Assembly: GCA_035765795.1 (NCBI GenBank)
Contig: DASTWX010000238.1
Span: 4,635 to 68,634, forward strand
Source: Pseudolabrys sp.
Lineage (GTDB): Bacteria; Pseudomonadota; Alphaproteobacteria; Rhizobiales; Xanthobacteraceae
Length of the DNA: 64,000 bases
Reading direction: 5' to 3'
Numbering within the stretch: the first letter of the stretch is position 1; every line of letters starts with the position of its first letter. Position numbers and translations under genes: made by a program. A model generated the notes under the pieces. The model searched no databases. It saw only the letters and a list, made by a program, of their open reading frames with translations, and had not been told where the DNA came from. Shown one piece after another: positions 2,194 to 42,838 of the stretch.

Positions 2194-2990
2194 TCATGCC
2201 TCCAGGGAGCCAACCGGTGCTCCAGGGTCTCGAACAACATCGTGCCCAGCAAACCCATAGCGCCGAGGAGGAAGACGTAGGCAAGCACCCGGGCGGTATC
2301 GAACGTTTGGCTTGCCGACAGAATTGCGAAGCCGAAGCCGGCGAACGAGCCGAAGAACTCCGCAACCACAATACCCACGAGCGCGCGGGCCCAAGCCACA
2401 CGAATGCCGCTGACGATGAATGGAAGCGCAAAGGGAAACGTAACCGTCGTGAACACCTGTAGGTTAGTCGCGTTGAAGGAGCGGGCCGCTTCGATCAACT
2501 GCCGGTCGGTGGCCCGCAAGCCGGTCTCAGTCGTGACAACTACAGGAAAGACGGCGACAAGCAGAACAAGGACGAACTTGGACGCGAAACCGAGACCAAG
2601 CCAAGCGATGAACAGCGGCGCGAGCGCGATGATCGGCACGGAATTCAGCGCGGCCAGAAGCGGACCAGCCGTGAGCGACAGCGCGCGGCTGGATGCCAAC
2701 GAGAGCCCGAGCAAGACCCCAATAGCGACCGAGACAACGAATGAAATACCGACCGCGGTGACGGTTGCGACCGCGTTGGTCCACATCGCGCCGTCGTTGG
2801 CCTCCCGCACCAAGGCCCGCGCCACATCAATTGGCGGGACCAAGACGAGCCGGTTGGTGACGAACAGCGTAACCAATTGCCAGACGGCGATTACGCAGAC
2901 AGCCGATATGGCGACCCGGGCGGTCGCCGCCATCCGCCCGTCTTGCTCGAGCACATCCAGTATTTTTCGCAAAGCGCTCGGCTCTTGCAT
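2190..2990 (-). CDS. ABC transporter permease, NitT/TauT family
   Basis: Hydrophobic helices and EAA motif (LIEAARSFNA). One-base overlap with the amidohydrolase stop. Confidence 0.93.
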   Translation of the reverse strand: MQEPSALRKILDVLEQDGRMAATARVAISAVCVIAVWQLVTLFVTNRLVLVPPIDVARALVREANDGAMWTNAVATVTAVGISFVVSVAIGVLLGLSLASSRALSLTAGPLLAALNSVPIIALAPLFIAWLGLGFASKFVLVLLVAVFPVVVTTETGLRATDRQLIEAARSFNATNLQVFTTVTFPFALPFIVSGIRVAWARALVGIVVAEFFGSFAGFGFAILSASQTFDTARVLAYVFLLGAMGLLGTMLFETLEHRLAPWRHE

Positions 2991-4375
2991 CAGCCTGGAT
3001 ACTGAGCGCGCGCCTGCCGCCCCCAGCCCTTTTCGCCAACAACCTTCCCGCCTTTAAAGACGGTGCGCCCACGTACGATCGTTTCGATCGGCTTGCCGCG
3101 CACCCTGTTGCCCGCATACGGGCTCCAACCGGTCAGGCTGAGCACGTCGTCATCACGAATTTCGTATTCCTTCTCGAGATCGACCAACACCAAATCGGCG
3201 TGGTGGCCGGGCACCACATCGCCCTTTTTGCCGATGCCGAAGATCGCCGCCGGCGCTGTAGAGGTCGCCTCGACCACACGCTCCAACGAAATCTTGCCCT
3301 CCTGTGCGGCCGTCAGAAACATGCTGAGATAGAATTGCGTAGAGGGCGTCCCGGTATGCGCCTGCCAACCATCTCGCCAGCCGATCTCCTTTTCTTCCCG
3401 CGTATGCGGGGCGTGGTCGGTCGCGACAATATCGATTGTGCCGTCGTTCAGCCCTTCCCAGAGACTCGGCACGTTCTTTTCCGGCACCCAATACGAGAGA
3501 GCATATGAACCAAGCCGCTGGATGGACGACCAATCGCAACCGAGGAATAGAGCCCAGGGATTGATCTCGCAGGTGACCCGCTGGCCCGCGGCCTTGGCCC
3601 GCCGAATCAGATCGACACTGCCGCTCGTCTGCGTATGCAGAATATGCAGGTGGCAACCGGCCGCTTTCTGAAGCCGCAGCAGCGTGGCGATCGCCGTCTC
3701 CCAGATGACTCCATCGTGAGCGGCGTAAGCTTTCGCGTAGGCGAGGGCGTCGCGCTGCTGGCGATTCCAGAATTCCTTCTCGATGACGTCCATCAGCGCC
3801 TGATCGTGCGGATGCACCATCAGCGGCACGTTCACCTTGGCGCAATGCTGCATGATCTCGAGAATGCGTCCATGGTCGTGCACGCCAATCCCCGGCATGT
3901 GCGGGTACGAACGCCCGGTATCCACCACCATGAAAATCTTGAAGGCGGCGATGCCCTGGTCCGCCATCCGTGGGATTTCGTCGGCGATCGTCGGCGCCGG
4001 ATTGAAATTCCAATCCACGATGGCATCGCGCTCATAAATCGTGAATTGCTTTTTCAGTAGATCGAGACTGTTGGGCGGCGGATTGACGTTTGGCATACCA
4101 ACCGTCGTGGTGACCCCGCCCGCCGCGCATTGCATGGTGGAGGTGTGAATGGTGTCCTTGTATTCAAAACCGGGCTCGGATCCTTCGCGATGATGCGAAT
4201 GCATGTCGATGACGCCCGGGAGGATCGCGAGGCCGGATGCGTCCACCACGTCGGCCGCGGCCGGCTCGAGGCCGGGTTCGTAAAGCCCGGCAATCAGGCC
4301 ATCCTTGATGCCGATCGAAGTCTTGACGCGGCCTTTGGAAGTGATCAGCAGGCCGTTCTTAATCACGCGATCCAT
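2990..4375 (-). CDS. Dihydroorotase/allantoinase-like dinuclear metal amidohydrolase
   Basis: DMHSHHRE (HxH), AAGGVTT..MPN, candidate carbamylated Lys in AFKIFM, HILH, TDHAPH, and GxxADLV. AGGAG RBS upstream. Confidence 0.88.
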   Translation of the reverse strand: MDRVIKNGLLITSKGRVKTSIGIKDGLIAGLYEPGLEPAAADVVDASGLAILPGVIDMHSHHREGSEPGFEYKDTIHTSTMQCAAGGVTTTVGMPNVNPPPNSLDLLKKQFTIYERDAIVDWNFNPAPTIADEIPRMADQGIAAFKIFMVVDTGRSYPHMPGIGVHDHGRILEIMQHCAKVNVPLMVHPHDQALMDVIEKEFWNRQQRDALAYAKAYAAHDGVIWETAIATLLRLQKAAGCHLHILHTQTSGSVDLIRRAKAAGQRVTCEINPWALFLGCDWSSIQRLGSYALSYWVPEKNVPSLWEGLNDGTIDIVATDHAPHTREEKEIGWRDGWQAHTGTPSTQFYLSMFLTAAQEGKISLERVVEATSTAPAAIFGIGKKGDVVPGHHADLVLVDLEKEYEIRDDDVLSLTGWSPYAGNRVRGKPIETIVRGRTVFKGGKVVGEKGWGRQARAQYPG

Positions 4376-4401
4376 TCACCTGTCTCCTGGAACAATTTGA
4401 A

Positions 4402-5460
4402 TCAGAAAGAAGCATCGGCGGGCGCGATCCGCTTTTGACGGATCGTTTCCAAGACTTCGACCACGAACTCACGCGGCAACGCGCGGGTGATAAAGACGAT
4501 CTGGGAGCGCCGCTCGCCGCCCGGCCACTCGTCGAGTTCTTGCGGCGGATGGAAGAGGTGCTGCACGGCCTGGACGACGATCGGCTTGTCGCGTCCGGCG
4601 ATTGAAAGGATGCCCTTCACCCGCAACAACTGGTCTCCATGCGCCATGACCAGCGCATCGAGCCAGTTTGCCACATGCTCCCAATGCAGCGGCTCGGCAT
4701 AAGAGAGGCAGAACGAGCCGATGTCGGCGTCGTGCCGATTGACGTCGTGGTGGTGACGATGGCCGTGGCCCTCGTCGGCGCCATACCGATAGGCTTCCGC
4801 ATTGAGCCAAGCCGCCACGTCACTGCTCTTGGCCGCCGGATCATAGACATCGGCGGCCGCCAGATCGGCAAACCGAAATACATCGTTTCCCGCCGACCGG
4901 TGCAGACGCGCGCCTGCATTGAGCGCTAGCACGGCCGCCTCGGTGTTAGCGACCGCCGCGCCGGGCACATCGATCTTGGTGACGATCACGTCATCGGCCA
5001 CCGCCGCCTGCTTGAGGGACTCGGAATGCCGCTGCAGCGTCTGAATGCCGTTCACCGCATCGACGGCCGTAACGATCCGATGCAAGCAGAAGCGTCGTGC
5101 GACCGGAAAGGTCATCAACGCCTGAATCACCGGCGCCGGATCAGCGAGGCCGGTGGTCTCGATCACCACACGATCGAAATCCCTCACCTCGCCGCTTGCG
5201 CGCTTCGCCTGCAGCTCGCGCAGCGTATCCACCAGGTCACCGCGCACCGTGCAGCAGAGGCAGCCGGTGCTGAGCTCGATGGTGTTGTCGTTGCTCGATG
5301 CGATCAGGGCATGATCTATCCCAACTTCGCCGAACTCGTTTACGATCACGGCCGCCCCGGCAAGGTCGGGACTGCGCAGCCAAGCATTGAGGAGCGTGGT
5401 CTTGCCGCTGCCGAGAAAGCCCGTCAGCAGCATTACCGGCGTGCGGTCATCATTTGCCAT
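4402..5460 (-). CDS. COG0523/CobW-family G3E GTPase metallochaperone
   Basis: GFLGSGKTT, NEFGE, GCLCC, ETTGLADP, His-rich HGHRHHH insert, and CobW_C motifs LLRVKG and SQIVFI. ATG at 5460 chosen over TTG at 5472. Confidence 0.92.
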   Translation of the reverse strand: MANDDRTPVMLLTGFLGSGKTTLLNAWLRSPDLAGAAVIVNEFGEVGIDHALIASSNDNTIELSTGCLCCTVRGDLVDTLRELQAKRASGEVRDFDRVVIETTGLADPAPVIQALMTFPVARRFCLHRIVTAVDAVNGIQTLQRHSESLKQAAVADDVIVTKIDVPGAAVANTEAAVLALNAGARLHRSAGNDVFRFADLAAADVYDPAAKSSDVAAWLNAEAYRYGADEGHGHRHHHDVNRHDADIGSFCLSYAEPLHWEHVANWLDALVMAHGDQLLRVKGILSIAGRDKPIVVQAVQHLFHPPQELDEWPGGERRSQIVFITRALPREFVVEVLETIRQKRIAPADASF

Positions 5461-5493: not shown

Positions 5494-6465
5494 TTATTTC
5501 GCCGCGAGATAGCTCGGGTCGTAATACCGAGACAGATCGAACGGCTTTGCTGACGGCGCAGCGCGGCCGAGAGCGGCATCGATGTCGAGGATGTCTTTGA
5601 GCCCCGCGGCCTGCACCTCGAGCCCGGGAGCAATCGCTTTTTGTTCCTCGATGATGAATTTATAGGAGTCTGCACACACGTCCTTCGGAATGTGCGTATA
5701 AGCGGCGAGAATTTCGATCGCTTTTTGCTTATTCGCCGGCTTGTAAATCCAGATGGCCGCATCCTTCAGCGCCTGTGTGAGGCCGACCGCGGCTTTATGA
5801 TTCTTGGCGGCCCAGTCCTTGTTCACGATGAGCGGCGTCTCGATGTAAGGCTTCTTGTAAACGTCGAGGACCTTCATGCCCTGTCGTTGGGCCAAGGTGT
5901 CAAACGGAGCGATCAGCAACGCTCCTTGCACCTGTCCATTTTCCAACGCGACGATGCGGTCTTTGGAGTTGGTGATCGCCACCATCTTAACGCTTTCAGG
6001 GTCGACGCCATTCCGCTTGAGCTGATAGCGCAACAGGTTCGCCGTGCCGCCCTCGACCGCGCCGGCGGTCACGATTTTGCCCTTGAGCTGCTTGACTTCG
6101 TTCACGCCTTTGCCGCCGACCATGCGAAGGATGGTCTTGCCCAGAATGGCGCCGGTGATGACGACGGGAGCACCCTTGTCGACCGCGCGAATGACGAGAT
6201 CGCCGAGCGATATGCCCGCCTCCACGCTGCCGGAGGACACCGCTTGCAACAGGGCCGGACTGCTGCCCGCCCGCAATTCCTTCACCGTAACGCCATGCTT
6301 GGCGTAGAAGCCTTCCTGCTTCGCAATGGCGTGCAGCCACAAAAGGGCGCTGGGAGCCAGCGTGGCGACACGGACCTCCGTCGGCTGTTCGGCGCGTGCG
6401 GCCGCGGTGGTGAAAGAGAGCGCGGCGACCGCGCAAAAGCACAGACTTCGGGCAAGGCGCTTCAT
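5494..6465 (-). CDS. ABC substrate-binding protein, SsuA/TauA/NMT1-like
   Basis: Signal peptide ending AARA, class II periplasmic binding pattern (AKQEGFYAKHGV), and first gene of the operon. Confidence 0.85.
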   Translation of the reverse strand: MKRLARSLCFCAVAALSFTTAAARAEQPTEVRVATLAPSALLWLHAIAKQEGFYAKHGVTVKELRAGSSPALLQAVSSGSVEAGISLGDLVIRAVDKGAPVVITGAILGKTILRMVGGKGVNEVKQLKGKIVTAGAVEGGTANLLRYQLKRNGVDPESVKMVAITNSKDRIVALENGQVQGALLIAPFDTLAQRQGMKVLDVYKKPYIETPLIVNKDWAAKNHKAAVGLTQALKDAAIWIYKPANKQKAIEILAAYTHIPKDVCADSYKFIIEEQKAIAPGLEVQAAGLKDILDIDAALGRAAPSAKPFDLSRYYDPSYLAAK

Positions 6466-32156: not shown

Positions 32157-32684
32157 GTGCGTACTTTATCTCTATCTCTCGTCTTGATCATTCCCCTCAT
32201 GGCAACCGCTGCGCACGCGCAGGATCCGACAGGTGAGTGGCAGGTGGCCAATGGGGCGGCTCATGTGCGCATCGTGGACTGCGGCCCGGCGCTCTGGGGC
32301 GTGGTATCTTGGGAAAAGAGGCCCGGGCGCGACATTAACAATCCCAATCCCGCGCTCCGGCAGCGACCGACGCTCGGCATGCCCATTCTTCTTCACATGC
32401 GCCCGGCCGATGAGGCCAGCAAATGGGAAGGCGAAGTGTACAACAGCGAAGATGGACGCACATATGACGCCTCGATCGCCATACGCAGCGCCGACACCCT
32501 GCACATCGAAGGCTGCGCCCTGGGTATTTTCTGCGGCGGCGAGAATTGGACCCGCGTCACTCAACCCGCGTCAGTTGCTTCCCGAACCCGGGCACGGCAA
32601 ACGACCGGGACCCGCGCACCGAGTAGATCGCCTGCCGCCGCCATCTGCTCACGCGTCGCCGCTTCCACGCGGGGGTCCCATTAG
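32157..32684 (+). CDS. DUF2147-family exported protein
   Basis: GTG at 32157 with AAGGAG RBS, signal peptide, DPTGEW, D..NP....R.RP.LG, W.G.VYN.EDG.TY, GC....CG...WTR. Confidence 0.82.
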   Translation: MRTLSLSLVLIIPLMATAAHAQDPTGEWQVANGAAHVRIVDCGPALWGVVSWEKRPGRDINNPNPALRQRPTLGMPILLHMRPADEASKWEGEVYNSEDGRTYDASIAIRSADTLHIEGCALGIFCGGENWTRVTQPASVASRTRARQTTGTRAPSRSPAAAICSRVAASTRGSH

Positions 32685-35240
32685 CACCGGTTGGAACAGC
32701 ACGGCCGCGGCCAACGTGCAAACGAGCGATAGCGCCAGGAGCTTGCCCATGCTCGAAGTGCCCGGATGATTGGAGAACCATAGGCTACCGAAAGCCGTAG
32801 CCGTCGTTAGTGCGCTGAAAAACACCGCTCGGGTGAGCGGTGATTGAAGCACACCAGCCTGTCCGGAGCGCCACGCCATCATGTAATAGATCTTGAACGC
32901 TACGCCGATGCCGAGCAGCAACGGCAAGGCAATGATATTGGCGAAATTCAACGACATTCCGAACGCGACGGTCAGCTCGAGCGTCACCACGGCGGCGACG
33001 AGAAGCGGAATAATCGTCAGCAGAACGTCGCCGATGCGCCGCAAGACCAGCCATAACAAAATGAAGATCGAGATCAGCGCCCATAAGCCGGCCTCGATGA
33101 AAGAACGAATGATAGTCCGGCCCGACTCGAGGATCGAAATCGGTCCGCCGGTGGCCTGTGGTTCTACCTTGAGCACCGCGCGCGCAAAATTGCGGATTGC
33201 TTCGTTTGTTTTCAGCTCGCCTTTCGGTAACACTTGGACGCGCGCTCGACCATCGGCGGTAAGCCATTGATTGCGGATCGACTGCGGCAAATTTTGTTCG
33301 GTCACGCGTTGCGCCTGCAATGCTGCCCGCAGGCCTCCAAGCGCCGTCTCCAGCGGCTGCACGAATACCGCCTGGGCACGCTCCCGCACGGAAGGAGCAG
33401 CCGCTGCCAAGCGGCCGAGGTCGCCGGCCAGCCGTGTTGCCGCCGCCGCGCCTTGATCTGATAGACCTTCGGCAGCGCCTTCCAGCATCTGTCGGGCGCG
33501 GGTGAGCGCGGCGATATTTTCGGCGTCGGTTGGCGGAGACTGCTTCTCGGCATTCAATGCAGGGCCAAGCGACTCGCCGGCCGCACGGATCATGAAGAGC
33601 TTCTGGTCCTGATCCTCGGGCACATAATTCGCGAGCGTTACGGCTTCCGAGATCTCCGGCACGTTGCGAAGCTTGGCCGCCATCGCTCGAGCGGCTTGTT
33701 GCGAGGGCGCCAGTATGTCGACCGCATTGGCCCCGGCAGTCGGGTCTTTCTGCACGTCGATGTACGTCGCGATCGACTCCGCGTTCGGATTGCGCAGGTG
33801 GATCGGATTGAAATCGAAACTCAGAAAATAGAGCAGCGGCAGCGCGGCGACGACCAACGCGGCAGTTCCGTAAAGGATCGGCATCCGGTGGCGCATCATG
33901 AAGTTGTCGACCGGCGCCAGCGCTGCATAGCCGAGCGGCTCCGGCTCCCCGGGCGGGTTGAGGAGAGTCAACAGCGCGGGCAGGACGGTGATGCTGCCGA
34001 AAAAGGCTATGATCATGCCCAAGCCGGCGATCTGCCCAAGCTCCGACACACCGAGATAGGCGGTGGGCACGAAGGCCAGAAAGCCCGCCGCCGTCGCCGC
34101 CGCCGCCAGCGCCAGCGGCGTGCTGATGTGCGCGCCGGCATTGATCAGGGCCTTTCGCAGGTCGTCATGCGCATATCGCTCCGCACGATAGCGCACACTG
34201 TACTGGATGCCGAAATCGACCCCGATGCCGACGAAAAGGACGGCAAAAGCCACCGAAATCAAATTGAGGGCACCCACCATCATCAGGCCGGCGGCGGCCG
34301 TGACGGCGAGACCGACCACAACCGTAACGAACACAGCGAAGATGATTTTCGGCGATCGCAGCGCCAGCCACAGAATAAACAGCACCACCGCGACGGTGAT
34401 GAGGCCGTTGACGGCGGCGCCATCTTGAACGGTGCGGAACTCTTCATCCGAAATCGGCACCGAGCCGGTAAGCCGCACAGTGGCGCCGAGCTTGTCGTGC
34501 AGGTTCAGCCGGGCCGCGGCAGCGCGGATAGCATCGGTCGCCGCCTTTCCCGGCTCGAGCGCGGCGAAATCGAGGACCGGATGCACGATGATGAAGCGAC
34601 GCAGGTCATTGGTCGTCGGCGCCCGCCCCGCCAACATCGCGCGCCAGGAGAACGTGGCCGGTTTGTTGGCCAGAGCGTCCTCGACGGTCGCGGATGCCTT
34701 GTCGAGCGCGCCAGCAACAGGATCAAGCGAATGAGTCTTCGCTTTCGTCCCCATAACCCCGTAGGTCAGGACACGCGTCAGGCCGCGCAAGCTCGGGTCT
34801 GCGACCAAAACGCGAACAAGCGGGGCTGCTTGGCTCAGGTTGTTCGTCAGCGCCGCGACCTGGGCGGTAGAGGGAAAGAGGAAAGCACTACGGGCAAAGA
34901 ATGGTGTCTCGGCTACCGGCTCGACCGAACGGAACAACTGCTTGCGGCCGGACAGAGCCGCGGACAACGAACGGGCCGCCTCGCTTGCCGCTTCCGATGT
35001 GGGCGCGTCGATGACGACGAGAATGGATTGCGCGTTCTGCGGAAACGCCTTGTTGAAGGCGATCTCGCGCTGCCGCCACGGCAGATCGCGGGAAATCAGG
35101 CCGCTTATGTCGGTGTTGATGGCGAAATGACTGCTGCAATAGTAGCCGGCGAGCACCGCCGCGGCTATCGACAATAAGAGCACTGTCCACGGCCAGCGGG
35201 TGCACTGCGTGATAATGGACTTGATGGCGGATCTGATCAT
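32649..35240 (-). CDS. hpnN: MMPL/RND hopanoid transporter-like protein
   Basis: Two MMPL TM blocks, INTDISGLIS.DLPWRQ, AFAVLFVGIGVDFGIQ, FDFNP..L, NFANIIALPLLLGIGVAF, S.HPGTSSMG. ATG 35240 preferred. Confidence 0.88.
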   Translation of the reverse strand: MIRSAIKSIITQCTRWPWTVLLLSIAAAVLAGYYCSSHFAINTDISGLISRDLPWRQREIAFNKAFPQNAQSILVVIDAPTSEAASEAARSLSAALSGRKQLFRSVEPVAETPFFARSAFLFPSTAQVAALTNNLSQAAPLVRVLVADPSLRGLTRVLTYGVMGTKAKTHSLDPVAGALDKASATVEDALANKPATFSWRAMLAGRAPTTNDLRRFIIVHPVLDFAALEPGKAATDAIRAAAARLNLHDKLGATVRLTGSVPISDEEFRTVQDGAAVNGLITVAVVLFILWLALRSPKIIFAVFVTVVVGLAVTAAAGLMMVGALNLISVAFAVLFVGIGVDFGIQYSVRYRAERYAHDDLRKALINAGAHISTPLALAAAATAAGFLAFVPTAYLGVSELGQIAGLGMIIAFFGSITVLPALLTLLNPPGEPEPLGYAALAPVDNFMMRHRMPILYGTAALVVAALPLLYFLSFDFNPIHLRNPNAESIATYIDVQKDPTAGANAVDILAPSQQAARAMAAKLRNVPEISEAVTLANYVPEDQDQKLFMIRAAGESLGPALNAEKQSPPTDAENIAALTRARQMLEGAAEGLSDQGAAAATRLAGDLGRLAAAAPSVRERAQAVFVQPLETALGGLRAALQAQRVTEQNLPQSIRNQWLTADGRARVQVLPKGELKTNEAIRNFARAVLKVEPQATGGPISILESGRTIIRSFIEAGLWALISIFILLWLVLRRIGDVLLTIIPLLVAAVVTLELTVAFGMSLNFANIIALPLLLGIGVAFKIYYMMAWRSGQAGVLQSPLTRAVFFSALTTATAFGSLWFSNHPGTSSMGKLLALSLVCTLAAAVLFQPVLMGPPRGSGDA

Positions 35241-35638
35241 CGCAGGCGGCTTACCACGGCTCCAGGTACCCAATGCCCGTCGCGCCTCGCAGCCAAGATG
35301 CTGCGATGGCCCGTGGCCATCGTGGTTCTCTCCTGCTGGAGAACAATTGTCCCAAGCCGTCGTTCAAAAGGTCCGGCAGCGGATAAGGTGGAACCCACAC
35401 CGCGATCTAACCACACGCTAAAGCATCAACCGGCTTGGCACGGTTGCAATAGACTCAGATGTGTGTCCGAACTCGGGCGGACGCCAGAAATTGCAAAGCC
35501 GCGACACCGCTGCCGGCGCGCCCCGAGCGGTCCGGACCTCAGGCGCATGGAACAAGGCGCTTGCCCCGTTGGGCTACAGGCGCTCAACAGAACGGCCGGC
35601 CAATCCGCACGTTCGACAGGATGAGCGCGCTAACTCTC

Positions 35639-35980
35639 CTAGACTCGCTCCGTTTTCTTGGCCCGCTCGTGTCGGCGGTTCGCCGCCAACTCGTCGAACG
35701 TCAGGACCAGCCGCCCATCGGGCTCGGCTTCAGCGTAGATCGCCTGCGACTGAGCGCGCGACAAGAACGATTGCAGCGCAGAGCGGGAGCAGTCGGGCAA
35801 TGCAAGGAGCGCGCGGGCCGTCTCCAGCAGACCCGGCTCCTGGCTCCAATAAAATAGTTCAAGAATACGGTTATGGTCTGCGCAGCCGAGCACGAGCGTA
35901 CGGACGACCTCCCATATTTCCGCGTTGCGCTGCAAGGTCTCGCCGGAGACCTCATGGGATGCGGAAACACGCGCCGCCAT
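35639..35980 (-). CDS. Hypothetical protein (113 aa), last gene of the LysR-divergent cassette
   Basis: Strong GGAGGGGG RBS before ATG 35980, protein-like composition, and co-oriented with the three upstream genes. Confidence 0.7.
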   Translation of the reverse strand: MAARVSASHEVSGETLQRNAEIWEVVRTLVLGCADHNRILELFYWSQEPGLLETARALLALPDCSRSALQSFLSRAQSQAIYAEAEPDGRLVLTFDELAANRRHERAKKTERV

Positions 35981-36177
35981 CTCAGCCCCCTCCGAGTGTC
36001 TGGTGGACCCCGCCGCGAGGCCGCACGGAAATGAAGAGGTTTCGAAGCCGTTTCAGTGTCATTTTCGATGCACCTGATTGTTTCGTTCGAAGCTGATCAG
36101 CGAACACAACGTCCCGCGTACATCCTCCCCAAACGTTCTGCTTTCCGGCGACGGATTCGAGATGCCGCCACACGGCG

Positions 36178-36813
36178 TTAGCGCACGCAATCGTGACTTT
36201 CGGAACTGTACTCGACGCCGCGGATGAACGACCATTCTCGGGTGGTGTCGATCCAGTCCGCAGTGGTCGCAACCTTCCCGTACAAGCTGAGTACCTTCAC
36301 TAACAGCGCGTGCACATCGTTCGCGTCCGTGCCTTCGAGGGCATGGCTCGCCGACGCATCGGAGAGAAAGGTAACGCGATGGGCGCGATGATGCGCGTCC
36401 ACGATGGTCGACAGGCATGCTGACTCGCCTGCAAAGCCGGCGAGCACGATATTGGCGCCAATTCCCTCATCCATGACGCGGGCAAATTCCTCGCTGTCGT
36501 AGCAGGACGGCATCTCGCGCTCGAAGACCATCTCGGTCGGCAGTGGCAAAAAACCTTCGATCCAGTGCGAAAAACGGGTGGCGGAGTTGAAGAACGGCGC
36601 CCGCCCGATCCGCCGCGTGAACGCCACCGGAAAACCCATGGTTCGCGCGTGCGCGAGCAGCGTGCGGCAGTTTGCAAGCGCCTGCTCCGCATTGGGGACC
36701 GCCATGCGGCGCGGCGCGGCCACATACTCCTGCTGCAAGTCGACCATGACGACCGTCGGAGCCGTCAGCGGATCGACGTAGGGACGCAAGCTGACGATGT
36801 TCGTTTTGGCCAC
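36178..36813 (-). CDS. Isochorismatase-family (cysteine hydrolase fold) protein, atypical active site
   Basis: VMVDLQQEY, NIVLAGFAGESACLST..DA.HR, V.FLSDASAS. GTG start with AAGGAG 7 nt upstream. Confidence 0.85.
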   Translation of the reverse strand: MAKTNIVSLRPYVDPLTAPTVVMVDLQQEYVAAPRRMAVPNAEQALANCRTLLAHARTMGFPVAFTRRIGRAPFFNSATRFSHWIEGFLPLPTEMVFEREMPSCYDSEEFARVMDEGIGANIVLAGFAGESACLSTIVDAHHRAHRVTFLSDASASHALEGTDANDVHALLVKVLSLYGKVATTADWIDTTREWSFIRGVEYSSESHDCVR

Positions 36814-36861
36814 GTTCGCGCTCCTTGCATGTTCTTTTATTGTCCTCGCAAAACGCGCATC

Positions 36862-37503
36862 TTACGCGGCGCGCTGGTGACGATTGGGCGAGGTGACTGG
36901 ACGGGCGGCGGAGAATTCCAGCGGGCCCGGCTCATCCCAGACACCTTCGGGGCGGATGAGCACATAAGGATCCGACTCGAGCGAAATAGCGTCTGGGTCG
37001 CGCTCGGTGACTAGCAACATCTCCGTGTAGGAATAATCGGAGAAAGTAAGTTCGCGATGCGGCTCCATCGGGCGTGCGCCGAAGCGGCTCCAGAACGAGA
37101 CCAGCCGGTCTTGCGCATGACCATAGATGCGCGTGTAGCCCTTGCGCTTGCAAAGCTTGATGCCGGTCCGCACCATGTCGAACGAGAGCCGTGAACGGCG
37201 AAACTCATGCCGCACGGCGAGGCGCTCGAGTTTTGCGAAATCGGCGAAGAAGCGCGCGCGCAAGCAGGCGGCCGGCTCACCTTTCACTGTGCCGATCAGA
37301 TGCATGGCGCAGAAATCATTTCCGTCGAATTCCTCGCTGAAAGGGCAATCTTGTTCGGCCAAGTAAACCGCCGCACGGATGGCGACGACTTTCATGAGAT
37401 CCGTCATCGATGAAGCGACGCTAATCGAAATTCCACTGTTATGGCCGGCCGACGCATTGGCAGGCGGCAATTTGGCGAGCCGGTTACGCTGCAGAGTACT
37501 CAT
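36862..37503 (-). CDS. GNAT-family N-acyltransferase (ElaA-like)
   Basis: IRAAVYLAEQDCPFSEEFDGND, AKLERLAVRHEFR, GY..IYGHAQ...FWSRFG. Confidence 0.85.
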   Translation of the reverse strand: MSTLQRNRLAKLPPANASAGHNSGISISVASSMTDLMKVVAIRAAVYLAEQDCPFSEEFDGNDFCAMHLIGTVKGEPAACLRARFFADFAKLERLAVRHEFRRSRLSFDMVRTGIKLCKRKGYTRIYGHAQDRLVSFWSRFGARPMEPHRELTFSDYSYTEMLLVTERDPDAISLESDPYVLIRPEGVWDEPGPLEFSAARPVTSPNRHQRAA

Positions 37504-37532
37504 TACGCTTTCCCCACTTACTGAACGCGATT

Positions 37533-37606
37533 GCTTCCGAAGTTCGTCTCAGAGATTGCCGCGATGGGACCACGAACTTCGGAAGCGGGCACTACCCGTG
37601 CCCGCT
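37533..37606. other. Two overlapping perfect hairpins in the intercistronic spacer
   Basis: GCTTCCGAAGTTCGT (37533-37547) / ACGAACTTCGGAAGC (37572-37586), 15 bp. AGCGGGCAC (37584-37592) / GTGCCCGCT (37598-37606), 9 bp. Confidence 0.75.
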
Positions 37607-38215
37607 GGGCGGCGCTCGCTTGACGAGCCGGACATATCGATGGAGTGAGCGCGGGTGTCCCGGCACCGGCCGGAAGCAAAGGCCTTGCATGAATCGCAGG
37701 CCATCTTCGGTGGCAGGTGTCGCGAAGACGTCCGACAACTCATACGGGCATTGCTGCACGCGCGCGATAACCTGCGCGATGCCTTCGGACGCCACCGAAG
37801 CGCCCAGCACCGCCCAGACGTAGATGGCACTCGGGCGCGTTCCATAGGGGGCGAGCAGCGAGGCTGGCGGCTCGGCGAAGTCGCATTTATTGGCGAGCAG
37901 CGCGGACAGGCCGACCCTGTTGAGCATGAGCATGGCAAAGCCGCCGACGATCCGGCCGCGCCGGCGGAATACCCAAACGCTGTCTGGATTGTCGCAGGCA
38001 ATCCGCGCCACAACGTCCTCACGCGCGAGAGCGACGCCCATGGCTACTTTTGCGTTCTCGAGCAAAACGGAAATATCTTCGCTGCGAGCGTGACTTGCCT
38101 CTACACGGCGCCGCACCGGAGGTGCGACCAAATCGAACTCTTTGCCCGGCCGAGCGCTACGTTGCGCGGCAAAGGAATTCGCGTCAGGGCTGTATCCCTC
38201 CGCAGTGGAGAGCAT
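37592..38215 (-). CDS. Hypothetical protein, possible degenerate GNAT fold
   Basis: ATG at 38215. Beta/alpha pattern VWVFRR.GRIVGGFAML, AIYVWAV, ATPATEDGLRFMQGLCF resembles GNAT motifs A and B. Fold call is inference. Confidence 0.65.
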   Translation of the reverse strand: MLSTAEGYSPDANSFAAQRSARPGKEFDLVAPPVRRRVEASHARSEDISVLLENAKVAMGVALAREDVVARIACDNPDSVWVFRRRGRIVGGFAMLMLNRVGLSALLANKCDFAEPPASLLAPYGTRPSAIYVWAVLGASVASEGIAQVIARVQQCPYELSDVFATPATEDGLRFMQGLCFRPVPGHPRSLHRYVRLVKRAPPSGHG

Positions 38216-38277
38216 AATGATTCCTAGGCAACATGCGAAAGTGTAGTAATTTTGTAGTCTGAATCGGGGCTTTTGAT

Positions 38278-39414
38278 ATGAGCAAGATTTCGCAACGGCC
38301 TGTTGCAAAAACGGATCAGCCGATCGGCGCAACACTGGTCGACCGGATTTCCTGGGACGACCTCAAGCTGTTCATCGCAGTGGCGCGCACGCTCAGCTTC
38401 CGGAGGGCGGCGACATCGACGCGCATCAGCTCCTCGACGCTCGTGCGTCGCATCGAACGACTGGAAGACGAATTGGGATTACGCCTGTTCGACCGCTTGC
38501 CGGACGGCGTTGGCCTGACCGCCGAAGGACAATCGATTTATTCGGTCGCTCAGGAGATGGAGCGCGCGAGCCACTCATTGCGCGCCTATCTCGATCAGGA
38601 TCTGACGACCCGCGGCGTGGTCCGCTGCGCGATCACCGAAGGCCTCGGGACCTTTTGGATCCTGCCGCATCTCGCCGAGTTTACCCGCGGAAACCCTTTT
38701 ACGATTGTTGACCTGCGGGCGTCGATGGAATCCGCCGATGTGCTGCGCATGCAGGCCGACGCCGCCATTCAACTCATCCGGCCGGACCATGCCGACCTCA
38801 AAGTCCTGCGCCTCGGCCGACTCCATATTTATCCCTTCGCCTCCCGCCGCTATGCCGATACCTATGGGCTGCCCCGTAGCGTCGAGGAGATGAAACGTCA
38901 TCGGCTTGTCGATCAGACGGCGCCGCAACTCGACGAGGGGGCTTGGCCGCGACTGCTCGGCCTCGACAATGTCGAGGGTATCGTGTCCCTGCGCACCAAC
39001 GCGAGCACAGCGCATTTCTATGCCGTCGAGCAGGGCATCGGCATCGGAGGCCTGCCGACCTACGCCGCCGCCCTGGGCGCCGACGTGGTGCCGGTCGACA
39101 TCGGCATCAAGCACCAGACGGATATCTGGCTGACGTACCACCCGCATGCCAAAACTGTTAAGCGCGTATCGATTTTCATCGACTGGGTGCGCTCGCTGTT
39201 CGACGCCAAGCGCTATCCCTGGTTCCGCGACGAATTCATTCACCCCCGCGACCTGGCCAAGGCCGATACGCCGGCACGCTCCGACCGCGCTACGCGCCGC
39301 TATGTGGCGACCAGCCCGAAGAACGGCGCTGTCGCGTCGATCGACCCGCCGCAACCGGCTGACGAAACATCTCGGCCCATTCGACTGAATGGGCGGTCGG
39401 CGGCGAATGGCTGA
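38278..39414 (+). CDS. LysR family transcriptional regulator with C-terminal extension
   Basis: SWDDLKLF...SFRRAA...SST..RRIERLEDELGLRLFDR HTH, TEGLGTFW, ADAAI, and DIWLTYHP. Confidence 0.93.
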   Translation: MSKISQRPVAKTDQPIGATLVDRISWDDLKLFIAVARTLSFRRAATSTRISSSTLVRRIERLEDELGLRLFDRLPDGVGLTAEGQSIYSVAQEMERASHSLRAYLDQDLTTRGVVRCAITEGLGTFWILPHLAEFTRGNPFTIVDLRASMESADVLRMQADAAIQLIRPDHADLKVLRLGRLHIYPFASRRYADTYGLPRSVEEMKRHRLVDQTAPQLDEGAWPRLLGLDNVEGIVSLRTNASTAHFYAVEQGIGIGGLPTYAAALGADVVPVDIGIKHQTDIWLTYHPHAKTVKRVSIFIDWVRSLFDAKRYPWFRDEFIHPRDLAKADTPARSDRATRRYVATSPKNGAVASIDPPQPADETSRPIRLNGRSAANG

Positions 39415-39444
39415 GAGCGCTCTCTGAAGCATCGCATAAGGCGA

Positions 39445-39521
39445 TGGCGGTCCCGACAGGAGTCGAACCTGTGACCTTCGGTTTAGGAAACCGCTGCTCT
39501 ATCCTGCTGAGCTACGGGACC
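39445..39521 (-). tRNA. tRNA-Arg (anticodon CCT), CCA encoded
   Basis: Reverse strand reads GGTCCCG TA GCTC AGCAGGATA GAGC A GCGGT TTCCTAA ACCGA AGGTC ACAGG TTCGACT CCTGT CGGGACC GCCA, a 77-nt cloverleaf. Confidence 0.97.
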
Positions 39522-39708
39522 GGTCGGGTTGCTGTAGCATAGCTCAATCACCGGCGCATCTATCAGTATATCGCCCTCTGCCCGCGCCTGACGGCGGAAG
39601 TTTCGTCTGCCGTTGACGTTCAGCGGAGGGTAGGGCGAAAAGGCCGCCAAATCCCGCGGACAGCAATCACGACCCGTATTCTCGCTCGCCACTCACTTAC
39701 TCGCGGAA

Positions 39709-40323
39709 TCAGAGCGGCTTGATCTGGACTTTGCGGAATTTGATAGCTCCGGCTCCGTGCTGGAGCGCGATCGAGCCTTCGTCGAACATTCCGTTGCGTA
39801 ACTGAGCCGTCTTCTGTCCGTTGAGCACGACCGTGATGTCACGTCCGTTGGCGGTGATCTCGAACGTGTTCCATTTCGCGCCGGCCTTCGGCATGGGATT
39901 GACCTCGACATAGCGGGTAATCGCACCGGTGCCGTAGCTCGGATCCGGACGCTGATCGAAAATATTCGCCTCATAGCAAGTGCGGTCGGTGATCTTCTTG
40001 GAATCGAGGCAGCGGAAATAGATGCCGCTGTTGGCGTCGTCACTGGGCCAGAATTCGACACGCAGAATGAAATTCTTGTATGGTTTCTTGCTCACCAGAT
40101 AACCAGCTTCTTTGCCTGCCATCTTGTCGGCGAGCACGGCGCCATCCGCAAGACGCCAATTGGATTGGCCGACCTGGTCCCACTGGTCGAGATTGGTGCC
40201 GTCGAACAACGTAATCCATCCGGATTCTCCGCGGTCAGACTGCGACAGCGCCGGGCTTGCGATGAAGCCGCAAGCAACGAGCGCGACGGCAAATTGCATG
40301 AAACGCACTGAACTTGATTTCAT
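39709..40323 (-). CDS. DUF1080 (3-keto-disaccharide hydrolase-like) exported protein
   Basis: Signal peptide, GWITLFDGTNL, NF.LRVEF, ANSGIYFR, YEANI, WNTFEI, G.IALQH, and FRKVQIKPL. Confidence 0.85.
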   Translation of the reverse strand: MKSSSVRFMQFAVALVACGFIASPALSQSDRGESGWITLFDGTNLDQWDQVGQSNWRLADGAVLADKMAGKEAGYLVSKKPYKNFILRVEFWPSDDANSGIYFRCLDSKKITDRTCYEANIFDQRPDPSYGTGAITRYVEVNPMPKAGAKWNTFEITANGRDITVVLNGQKTAQLRNGMFDEGSIALQHGAGAIKFRKVQIKPL

Positions 40324-40689: not shown

Positions 40690-41289
40690 TCAGGTCCGGT
40701 TGTTGAACGGCGGCGGGCCGCCATTTTGAGGACCTGACCCGTTGTTGCCCTGATTGCCGGTGCCGTTGCTGCCGCCCGGGGGTGGGGGGCTGTTCGGCGG
40801 CGGGGGCGGCGCTTTAGGCGGGGGCGGCGGATTGGCGCCGGGTCCCGTCGGATGCTCCCCGCCCATGGTGGCTACTTTGTCGATCAACTTGCTCGCAGCG
40901 TTTACGCAAGCCGCCACGTTCTCGTCTGCCGGGCAGCGGATATCGATCGTGGCATCGCCGCGCTTGAAATGAAACCGCGCGCCTCGCGCGCGCGCCCCCA
41001 TCATTCCCATCATGCCCATGCGGCGACCCATCATACCCATGTGATGGTGACGCCACATGTCCCCATGGTCCCACCGTCCTCCCTTCATGTCTTGATCCTC
41101 ATGGTCCGACCCCCAGTCGCGGTCGCGGTCCCACTGGTTGCGTGGGTGAGCCGCATTTATATCCGGGCCAGACTCGGAACTATTCCCGGCGTGATCGCCG
41201 GAAGAATCATAAGGCTGCGCGAACGTCGGTTGCACGGAACCGACGACCGCGGCGAGTGCCGTCGCTAAAACAATCGAAGCGATTTTCAT
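40690..41289 (-). CDS. Exported hypothetical protein with His/Met-rich and Pro-rich segments
   Basis: Signal peptide ending TFA, HHHMGMMGRRMGMMGMMG, compact GARFHFKRG..IDIRCP......CV domain, and a polyproline tail. Confidence 0.8.
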   Translation of the reverse strand: MKIASIVLATALAAVVGSVQPTFAQPYDSSGDHAGNSSESGPDINAAHPRNQWDRDRDWGSDHEDQDMKGGRWDHGDMWRHHHMGMMGRRMGMMGMMGARARGARFHFKRGDATIDIRCPADENVAACVNAASKLIDKVATMGGEHPTGPGANPPPPPKAPPPPPNSPPPPGGSNGTGNQGNNGSGPQNGGPPPFNNRT

Positions 41290-41453: not shown

Positions 41454-41557
41454 GACCTTTCGATCGCGCGCGCCGGGAACAGCGCACGCACTGCTCGCTC
41501 GAAGCGGCGAGCCGCACGACAGCAAACACAACCGGTTTCAGACGTCGAGAGGTGGCG

Positions 41558-42838
41558 ATGAAGGATTGTACGCGAGCTATTTGGATGAAGGATGTCACGC
41601 TAGCGGCGGCAGTCGTCGTGTTTGGCGCGATGCCGGCCAGCTACGTTCTGGCCGCGCCGTCTGTGCCCAACCAGCAACAAACCCAAAATCAGCCCACGAC
41701 GCCGCAACAGCAAGCGCAACAGACCGCCCGGATTCCGCTTCTGCCGGCGTCCGACATTGTCGGGCGCCCCGTAGTGGATTTGAACGGCACGAATGCTGGA
41801 CGCGTCAACTCGATGGTCATCGACACGAAGAACGGCGTGGTCGAATACGTGCTGATCGAAGGCCGCGGTGATTTCGATCTGAACGGTCAACTCATTGCGG
41901 CGCCATGGTCGATCATACAACAACCGCGCGGCAAGGGCGCCATCGGCCTTAAAGTAGATCGCAAGCAACTGGACAAGGCGCCGCGCATTTCGAGCGCCGA
42001 ACTCAATCGCCTCGGCACGGCGGGGTGGCGAACGCGCGTATATGGCTACTACGGCCGTCCCTATCCGTATTACGGGAGCGCCGCCTGGTACGGTTATCCC
42101 CCCGCGCCTATCACCGCGAACGGGCAAGACGCTTCGCTGCGGAACGGCATGACCGGACAAACCAACGGCTCACGAGGTGGAAACGCTCCGGCAAACGCCG
42201 CTGCGGCCAATGGTGCGGCTCGTGCGCCGAACAGTGCAAATGCAACTGCATCCAACGGCGCCCGAGCGGCGAACAACAACAATGCGAGCAAAACCGGAAA
42301 CAATCAGCAGCAGGGGAACGGGCAGCAGGAGAACGGGGGGAACGGATTGTCGGTCAACAACAACGGGGTCATCTCGGCTCTGATGCATGGCTCGACGGTT
42401 GCGCCAAACCAAGTCCAGTCTGCCCCTATCTACGGCCAAAACGGCACTCAACTGGGGCAAATCGACCAGTTATTGATCGACACGCGGACGGGCCACGTCG
42501 CTTATGCACTGGTCCGGCGCGGCGGCTTTCTCGGGCTCAACCCGACTTGGTTTGCCGTACCCGTCGAAGCGCTCTCGTGGCAGTCAAACCTTCCCGGCGG
42601 CAATGGGTATGCCAACGGGGGCGGGGTCGGCTACGGCAACGCAGGCGGACGACGGCTCGTCGTGAATGAGCAGAAACTCCAGAGCGTTCCCTCGGTACCC
42701 GTCAATCAGGCGCACCTGACGACCTACGCTCCTCGGCAGGATCTCGCTCGGCTTTATCAGCACTTCGGCATCAAGCCCTATTGGACTCGGAACGGGAATC
42801 AGTCGAACGCATCAACAACGGGGCAGAACGCGCACTGA
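41558..42838 (+). CDS. Exported double PRC-barrel protein with Asn/Gly/Gln-rich linker
   Basis: Two PRC-like repeats (ASDIVGRPVVDLNG...VNSMVID...VEYVLI and IYGQNG..LGQIDQLLID...VAYALV..GGFLG). GAGAGG RBS. Confidence 0.85.
   Translation: MKDCTRAIWMKDVTLAAAVVVFGAMPASYVLAAPSVPNQQQTQNQPTTPQQQAQQTARIPLLPASDIVGRPVVDLNGTNAGRVNSMVIDTKNGVVEYVLIEGRGDFDLNGQLIAAPWSIIQQPRGKGAIGLKVDRKQLDKAPRISSAELNRLGTAGWRTRVYGYYGRPYPYYGSAAWYGYPPAPITANGQDASLRNGMTGQTNGSRGGNAPANAAAANGAARAPNSANATASNGARAANNNNASKTGNNQQQGNGQQENGGNGLSVNNNGVISALMHGSTVAPNQVQSAPIYGQNGTQLGQIDQLLIDTRTGHVAYALVRRGGFLGLNPTWFAVPVEALSWQSNLPGGNGYANGGGVGYGNAGGRRLVVNEQKLQSVPSVPVNQAHLTTYAPRQDLARLYQHFGIKPYWTRNGNQSNASTTGQNAH

Follow-up and report, generated by a model that had tools for sequence, protein, structure and literature searches.

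The window analysed here, a 64,000-nucleotide stretch of contig DASTWX010000238.1 of Pseudolabrys sp., comes from an uncultured soil or rhizosphere organism with a genome GC content of ~62%, and between positions 35639 and 39414 it holds a compact cassette in which a LysR-type transcriptional regulator (LTTR) stands divergent to an operon of four genes. The regulator, of 378 amino acids (aa), lies at 38278-39414 on the forward strand. Across a 62-nt divergent control region (38216-38277) from it, and all on the reverse strand, are the genes for a 207-aa protein with the predicted fold of a degenerate GNAT (37592-38215), a presumably catalytic GNAT of 213 aa (36862-37503), a 211-aa isochorismatase-fold protein with a GTG start (36178-36813) and a 113-aa hypothetical protein (35639-35980). 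These five open reading frames (ORFs), which had been called in a first-pass annotation made from the letters alone, are confirmed at these positions. All have a GC content of 0.70-0.78 at third and 0.46-0.51 at second codon positions, the pattern of genuine genes in this genome (0.68/0.46/0.75 over the three positions of the 113-aa ORF), and since conserved homologues stand in the same order elsewhere they are far beyond chance. Shine-Dalgarno-like sequences precede all four operon genes. The ribosome-binding sites noted earlier for the last three are present (AAGGAG, 7 nt ahead of the GTG of the hydrolase; GGGGAAAG, a weaker one, for the 213-aa GNAT; GGAGGGGG for the 113-aa ORF), but the first gene, which had been left out of that observation, has one too, AGGAA, 7 nt upstream of its start. 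A longer, 247-aa reading of this first gene, from a GTG at 38335, is contradicted both by its extra 120 nt, whose GC content by codon position (0.47/0.45/0.45) follows a non-coding pattern, and by the homologues, which start at the ATG at 38215. As to expression, the sequence occurs only in DNA metagenome runs, with 0 RNA runs.

The cassette is not peculiar to this contig. A search with the 207-aa protein returned 41 clusters, almost all of them metagenomic, and the contigs of these homologues carry a LysR gene and, divergently, the hypothetical, the GNAT and the isochorismatase-like gene, with flanks that differ between loci. Ten loci were found in a scan of one genome per species (185,579 species), all ten in Alphaproteobacteria and mostly in uncultured metagenome-assembled genomes; they belong to Xanthobacteraceae, Methyloligellaceae, other Hyphomicrobiales, Microbaculum and Thermohalobaculum. 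The gene order is kept in 10/10, the GNAT being the best conserved protein (53-75% identity) and the 207-aa protein the fastest-evolving (29-58%). A divergent LysR lies within 700 bp in 64/64 non-redundant loci with at least 1.3 kb of upstream sequence, and a co-oriented hydrolase gene within 500 bp in 69/74 non-redundant loci with at least 0.8 kb of downstream sequence. The conserved core is thus composed of the LysR, the 207-aa protein, the 213-aa GNAT and the isochorismatase-like protein, with the linkage to LysR obligate. The proposal of a self-contained cassette whose genes co-occur across genomes has in these respects held up, except that the 113-aa gene, formerly counted as a member, is a variable accessory outside the core: unrelated small genes occupy its position in the relatives. 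Its own homologues, at 39-45% identity, lie on the far side of LysR in four loci of the fused type described below (L059, L066, L078 and L082), and neither tblastn, hidden Markov model (HMM) searches nor hhalign (probability <1%) connected it with the small genes that follow the hydrolase elsewhere. In the closest relatives with separate 207- and 213-aa genes that place is taken by a 126-131-aa family; none of the small post-hydrolase families is detectably related to another. No Pfam match was obtained for the 113-aa protein or for the 207-aa protein.

The relation between the first two operon genes emerges from their homologues. An exhaustive profile search gave 478 representative clusters, including some proteins of 376-433 aa in which the 207-aa family forms the N-terminal half and the 213-aa GNAT, along with its C-terminal extension, the C-terminal half. 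Such GNAT-GNAT fusions, for which a search had been suggested by the first-pass annotation, proved to be the rule: in most relatives the two counterparts are fused into one protein of ~410 aa. A scan of Joint Genome Institute (JGI) metagenomes with an alignment of fusions found at least 583 relatives, and a protein search with the fused protein P0246 gave 1,628 clusters at 90% identity (E <= 1e-30), whose database names, in Rhizomicrobium, Methylobacteriaceae, Roseitalea and unclassified Alphaproteobacteria, say only "GNAT family N-acetyltransferase". In the 80 fused loci that were fetched, a LysR gene again stands divergent to the fused GNAT and isochorismatase-like genes. As fusion is the state found in most relatives, the 207-aa and 213-aa proteins of the window probably act as one tandem-GNAT enzyme, for which they would have to form a heterodimer.

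The 207-aa protein has no sequence match in Pfam, NCBIfam or the PDB. Its AlphaFold2 (AF2) model (predicted local distance difference test, pLDDT, 83; predicted TM-score, pTM, 0.80) has GNAT topology, and the top Foldseek matches to it are GNATs, with 1l0c (2e-5) followed by Ard1, the GNAT-L of CurA, SbzI and EctA; there are 26 PDB matches at E <= 1e-3, with identities of 9-17%, and all those listed have the GNAT fold. In the model strand 4 (residues 130-138) passes into helix 3 (residues 140-153) through a loop of a single residue, so that the protein would have no pyrophosphate- or coenzyme A (CoA)-binding loop, and the segment that corresponds to this beta4-alpha3 loop varies among the fused forms. 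On the strength of the model the protein is best read as a degenerate, probably non-catalytic GNAT domain, which agrees with what had been suspected of it.

Tandem GNATs are known from other systems. MshD mycothiol synthase and Legionella VipF, like MAB_4324, have two GNAT folds per unit of which one has a recognisable cofactor loop, and VipF and MAB_4324 are among the Foldseek matches of the GNAT folds of the module. The pair described here nevertheless has no sequence relationship to these proteins, has the degenerate domain first and the catalytic domain second, and occurs in both split and fused form. Nor could hhalign relate its two halves to each other by sequence (probability 0.9%), so an origin by ancient duplication found no support, and in the AF2 model of the fused protein the arrangement of the two domains is unreliable (pTM 0.46) and the tail is of low confidence.

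The 213-aa protein is recognised by the Pfam family Acetyltransf_1 (PF00583; 27.0 bits against a cut-off of 20.7, E 5.8e-6), and a fused orthologue more strongly so (40.9 bits). Against the PDB, the profile of the family finds YjcF (1q2y, 8.7e-11), SACOL1063 (5jph, 1.3e-10), ElaA (5z6n, 2.3e-7) and PA0115 (1xeb), with matches between 1e-10 and 5e-4 overall. The fold comparison was made on an orthologue, the C-terminal domain of fused protein P0293, rather than on the window protein; it superposes on the ElaA, YjcF and SACOL1063 structures with Foldseek TM-scores of 0.82-0.93 and a root-mean-square deviation of 1.3-2.2 A. Profile and fold together place the catalytic GNAT in the ElaA/YjcF/SACOL1063 clade, with which it shares the signature R..V(F/Y)..EQ..P..E.D..D....H. 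It is not an orthologue of ElaA itself (NCBIfam PRK10314, 29.8 bits against a cut-off of 171), and it differs from the ElaA family in its motif A, in an extension of ~60 aa, in the second, degenerate GNAT domain present as partner or fused, and in the constant LysR. Motif A reads RRSRLS in place of Q/R-x-x-G-x-G/A (R-N-T-R-L-S and R-K-S-R-I-A in orthologues); set against hRgqGmG of SACOL1063 in the alignment, it retains the initial Arg and the small residue at the end but has lost the glycines. The protein is the most conserved member of the module: in an 18-sequence alignment its columns are on average 72% identical and 66 positions are invariant.

The extension at its C-terminus (36865-37056, reverse strand; ~aa 150-213) follows the pattern FSDYxYxEM...DPYVxIRPEGxWxxPGxLExSxxRxVTSP...AA, with many positions invariant in both split and fused forms, and it is kept even in loci without a hydrolase. 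The distal part falls below a pLDDT of 50 in the fused model (residues 375-414). At its very end, corresponding to 36862-36870, most of the aligned GNAT orthologues (L001-L021) terminate in -AA (RAA, KAA, EAA), and similar endings (QAA, HAA, VAA, FSA) are found on many orthologues of the 207-aa partner; the 207-aa protein of the window ends in -GHG. Such a C-terminal -AA resembles an ssrA-like degron of the ClpXP type.

A kinship with signal synthases had been suggested, on the grounds that the GNAT fold includes the LuxI-type and FeeM-type enzymes. The similarity goes no further than a related fold and the concept of a synthase paired with a receptor: neither of the GNAT-fold proteins of the window matches Autoind_synth (PF00765) up to E = 1, nor do the fusions up to E = 0.1, and the FeeM family (PF21926) is matched at 15.1-16.6 bits against a cut-off of 27 (E 0.007-0.02), and only over the generic beta4-alpha3-beta5 core. 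The grouping with ElaA, YjcF and SACOL1063 takes the place of that suggestion.

The isochorismatase fold of the 211-aa protein is certain (PF00857, 78.6 bits against a cut-off of 27, E 7.9e-22). Its nearest structures are 4h17, 3oqp, 3irv and 8cib, the last being CrcA (PA1677); EntB, VibB, RutB and N-carbamoylsarcosine amidase are all distant from the family profile. Registered by HMMER alignments to 3oqp, 4h17 and 8cib together with published assignments (PMC10213629), its active site keeps the Asp (D25), has R99 at the position of the Lys, and shows A132-C133 in place of Cys-x, so that the Asp-Lys-Cys triad of the cysteine hydrolases is absent. The alteration is a family trait. Among 56 orthologues, the first position is Asp in 52/56, the second is Arg in 48/56 and His in 4, and the nucleophile position is Ala in 36, Ser in 11, Thr in 4, Gly in 3, Val in 2 and Cys in 0, with Cys at the next position in 50/56. 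This conserved Asp/Arg/Cys set argues for a working, non-standard site. In 21/48 fused loci the start of the hydrolase gene overlaps the stop of the GNAT gene by 4 nt.

The altered site bears on the earlier idea of a chorismate-derived product. On such a reading the hydrolase would be a genuine EntB/PhzD-type isochorismatase, yielding a dihydro-aromatic amine or acid for the GNAT to acylate. A small residue (Ala, Ser, Gly) at the nucleophile position would suit this, for PhzD has Gly there (PMC10213629). The catalytic Lys is lost as well, however, with Arg in its stead; EntB (2fq1, 1.4e-6, behind 18 other structures) and VibB (3tb4, 5.6e-5) come far behind uncharacterised hydrolases and CrcA in the profile search; and no isochorismate synthase, 2-amino-2-deoxyisochorismate (ADIC) synthase or other gene of chorismate metabolism was found with the module among the clustered loci. 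The protein is not an orthologue of EntB or PhzD, and such a pathway is highly improbable.

A different role is brought to mind by CrcA, which counteracts the translational co-repressor Crc in Pseudomonas, stands outside any GNAT/LysR module and is, with 4h17 and 3oqp, the closest solved relative. It too has lost the nucleophile Cys, having Ser there (PMC10213629). CrcA differs in keeping the Lys, where the 211-aa protein has Arg together with the conserved Cys one residue after the nucleophile position; by analogy with it, the 211-aa protein may have a non-catalytic role. Extended to the whole module, this would make it a device directed at a macromolecule, the tandem GNAT acylating a protein (possibly one encoded by the module), an acyl carrier protein (ACP) or an aminoacyl-tRNA, with the isochorismatase-fold protein as a non-catalytic partner or antagonist. 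The very strong constraint on the GNAT and its tail, predicted to be disordered, would be in keeping with a macromolecular target, as would a hydrolase without the canonical site whose relative CrcA works by binding Crc (PMC10213629). Growth of E. coli is inhibited by over-expression of ElaA (PMC6199490), and in MadA/YiiD a related GNAT domain, itself of unknown function, is fused to an ACP-dependent enzyme (PMC8666670). The -AA endings of several GNAT and partner orthologues, if they are degrons, would point the same way. Set against these are the strongly conserved Asp, Arg and adjacent Cys of the hydrolase, as in a working site, the lack of any evident target, the poor conservation of the small accessory proteins, and the need of an LTTR for, normally, a small-molecule effector; moreover the in vitro acetylation reported for SACOL1063 and a structural homologue is that of free amino acids (PMC10267138). 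A macromolecular target is in sum a doubtful proposition.

The LysR contains both of the expected Pfam domains above their cut-offs, HTH_1 at residues 26-85 (2.3e-18) and LysR_substrate at 111-307 (4.9e-20). Its best NCBIfam matches, both below cut-off, are GcvA (2.5e-28) and DsdC (3.7e-27), a group of regulators that respond to amino-acid-type effectors. Its first codons (complement AATCTTnnTCAT) are kept across loci, and a motif adjoining its start is common to the orthologous spacers (CCCCGATTCAGACTACAAAAT in the window, CCCCGATCCAGCTTACATTGA in L001, CTAATTCGGATTACATTAC in L021); the 62-nt spacer is taken as a putative LTTR operator; no dyad or T-N11-A box was made out in it. The consensus scan for promoters and terminators found no sigma-70-like promoter in this control region, giving 0 promoter-like sites and 1 terminator-like site, against 3.9 expected by chance. 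Two variations on this regulatory arrangement were seen. At L003 both the LysR 5' end and the conserved spacer motif occur a second time within the 270-nt spacer between LysR and the first operon gene (5557-5826; AATCTTAGTCAT...CCGATCCAGATTAGATTA), which suggests a local duplication of the control region. Four fused loci (L027, L035, L052 and L067) have two LysR paralogues each, at ~2200-3300 and ~3850-5000; the non-adjacent copy, at 63-65% identity, is closer to the LysR of the window than the GNAT-adjacent copy is (45-49%), and it adjoins XRE genes, being divergent from one XRE gene in L027 and L052.

The gene set is described neither in Pfam, NCBIfam or PADLOC nor in the searchable literature, where titles and abstracts on GNAT, isochorismatase, LysR and operon together revealed no such system, in agreement with the first-pass annotation, which knew of none. 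A defence system or a type II GNAT toxin-antitoxin system was considered and set aside, with 0 PADLOC matches for any of the proteins and with the layout of an LTTR-divergent operon rather than an antitoxin-toxin pair. What is undescribed there is the specific combination, namely a split or fused pseudo-GNAT plus ElaA-type GNAT with its tail, an isochorismatase-fold partner with an Asp/Arg/(Ala)Cys site, and an invariably linked LysR. Taken singly, the parts all come from superfamilies already known, and modifying operons under LTTR control are nothing unusual.

The explanation that we favour, tentatively and at somewhat less than an even chance, is that of an LTTR-gated acylation module for a small molecule, which would serve not quorum sensing but the induced processing or inactivation of one particular compound that the bacteria meet in soil or rhizosphere. 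The tandem GNAT, made of the 213-aa catalytic protein and the 207-aa degenerate partner, would transfer an acyl group from a thioester, most likely an acyl-CoA, to the amine of an amino-acid-like metabolite; the co-translated isochorismatase-fold protein would hydrolyse a precursor or the N-acyl product of the same compound, or else bind the compound; and the GcvA/DsdC-like LysR would sense the compound, free or acylated, and switch the operon on. This explanation is favoured because LysR and hydrolase accompany the GNATs so constantly amid unrelated flanks, because Rosetta-stone fusions (~376-433 aa) join the 207- and 213-aa families, because the partner is a GNAT fold apparently without a CoA loop that evolves much faster than the catalytic subunit, and because the overlap of the GNAT stop with the hydrolase start indicates translational coupling. 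It is also favoured by the grouping of the GNAT with the CoA-binding proteins ElaA, YjcF and SACOL1063, the last of which is reportedly active on free amino acids in vitro. Processing of a substrate is suggested by the usual logic of LTTR-divergent operons, by the likeness of the regulator to GcvA and DsdC, and by the lineage-specific neighbours, which are genes of small-molecule uptake or conjugation. These neighbours, each confined to certain lineages, comprise carboxylate/H+ symporters (TcuC-like, HpaX-like and lactate-transporter-like), a TonB-dependent receptor, an AMP-forming acyl-CoA ligase directly downstream, a sulfotransferase, an S-adenosylmethionine-dependent methyltransferase, an alpha/beta hydrolase and a cupin.

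Several points weigh against such a processing module. In the hydrolase the canonical Lys is missing and the nucleophile position is occupied by residues other than Cys, and CrcA, the characterised protein closest to it, works through binding to a protein and is not known to be a catalyst (PMC10213629). The loss of the pyrophosphate-loop glycines in motif A makes the use of CoA uncertain, and the degree of conservation of the GNAT is unusual for a detoxification enzyme. The transporter and ligase associations each occur in few loci, which may be closely related lineages. The identities of the acyl donor, the acceptor, the hydrolase activity and the LTTR ligand, and the direction of the process, are all predicted. 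To these may be added the recurrence of two regulator-like accessories with the module: a helix-turn-helix regulator of the XRE type adjoins it in 25 loci, and a family of small helical proteins of ~60-140 aa, often with a basic tail (HMM consensus ...LIELLRDLGLEESAQLLEMARLDLQMKLHGISEAELDALCDALE...), is encoded immediately after the hydrolase in at least 25 loci (for instance L099 6860-7141, L052 6867-7205 and L009 7957-8259). This small family is absent from the window, and the representative scanned had no significant Pfam match.

Regulators of this sort lend themselves to a synthesis-and-sensing circuit, as had been proposed at the outset, in which an N-acylated signal or effector, built by the tandem GNAT from common precursors, would have LysR as its receptor and auto-inducer of the operon, and in which hydrolase, XRE regulator and small proteins would tune or turn over the signal. 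LuxI/R loci with RsaL- or RsaM-type modulators may resemble this arrangement. Enzyme and regulator are coupled at all 64 loci and co-diverge, the XRE and small helical proteins would be additional regulators, and the core has no transporter. A reduced form of the module fits as well: the plasmid search found one distant variant, on pAU20a of the cultured Aureimonas sp. AU20 (L103, NZ_CP006368.1 383520-386322), where LysR is accompanied by a 213-aa GNAT that has the tail (45% identity), by two small proteins, one of them from the small helical family, and by an XRE regulator, while the degenerate GNAT domain and the isochorismatase-like gene are missing. This minimal variant, a single enzyme with three regulator-like genes, looks more like a regulatory circuit than a pathway, and so counts against the processing module too. 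A precedent may be seen in Salmonella, where, according to PMC6277577, the GNAT OatA (YjgM) N-acetylates an amino-acid derivative to N,O-diacetylserine and this product upregulates the cysteine regulon that depends on the LysR-type regulator CysB; the analogy is mechanistic only, for the OatA gene does not adjoin cysB, and OatA itself is neither a tandem GNAT nor partnered by a hydrolase. On the other side, the GNAT belongs to neither the LuxI nor the FeeM family, LTTR-based cell-cell signalling is rare, nothing points to export, carboxylate importers and a TonB-dependent receptor adjoin the module in several lineages, and the product itself is hypothetical. We consider a circuit of this kind unlikely, and find it little different with the more specific proposal of a widespread, unrecognised ligand-making and ligand-sensing circuit of soil Alphaproteobacteria, likewise improbable, in which the pseudo-GNAT/GNAT pair would make an N-acyl effector of amino-acid type that is sensed by the linked LysR, with the hydrolase-fold protein, an XRE repressor and the small helical proteins providing turnover and homeostasis. 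Substrate-induced processing is at least as likely as the production of a signal.

The protein genes that flank the cassette in the window look unrelated to it. A tRNA-Arg(CCT) gene at 39445-39521 on the reverse strand lies 30 nt past the LysR stop with its 3' end towards the cassette, a position typical of an island insertion site; a genomic island at this tRNA found no support, as 35200-39600 contains neither an integrase nor a direct repeat of the end of the tRNA. On the side of the 113-aa gene there is an 874-aa membrane protein of the MMPL family (32649-35273, reverse strand). Beyond the tRNA lie, on the reverse strand, a protein like 3-keto-disaccharide hydrolases (39709-40323) and a 199-aa His/Met/Gly/Pro-rich protein with a signal-peptide-like N-terminus and no Pfam match (40690-41289), followed on the forward strand by a PRC-barrel protein with low-complexity regions rich in Asn, Gly and Gln (41552-42838).

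Alphaproteobacteria of soil and rhizosphere carry the module in abundance, in more than 1,000 sequence clusters. The ElaA/YjcF clade is without an established physiological function, as are many isochorismatase-like proteins that lack the catalytic cysteine, and here both families are locked into one compact module with a dedicated LysR. The split and fused forms of the tandem GNAT predict a heterodimer, and the conserved Asp/Arg/Cys site offers residues open to mutation. Cultured carriers exist in Microbaculum (Microbaculum sp. FT89 and M. marinum), in Roseitalea (R. porphyridii) and, for the minimal variant, in the plasmid-bearing Aureimonas strain, which could serve as a genetic system. If the module neither makes a ligand nor detoxifies, it would be one more conserved operon of unknown substrate. 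If it is a detoxification device, it would point to an unknown soil toxin or plant metabolite. If its product is the ligand of the LTTR, it would represent a new class of enzyme-receptor pair, and a signalling circuit, if that is what it proves to be, would lie outside the LuxI/LuxR type, be built on an enzyme of the ElaA family, and give this orphan family its first physiological role.

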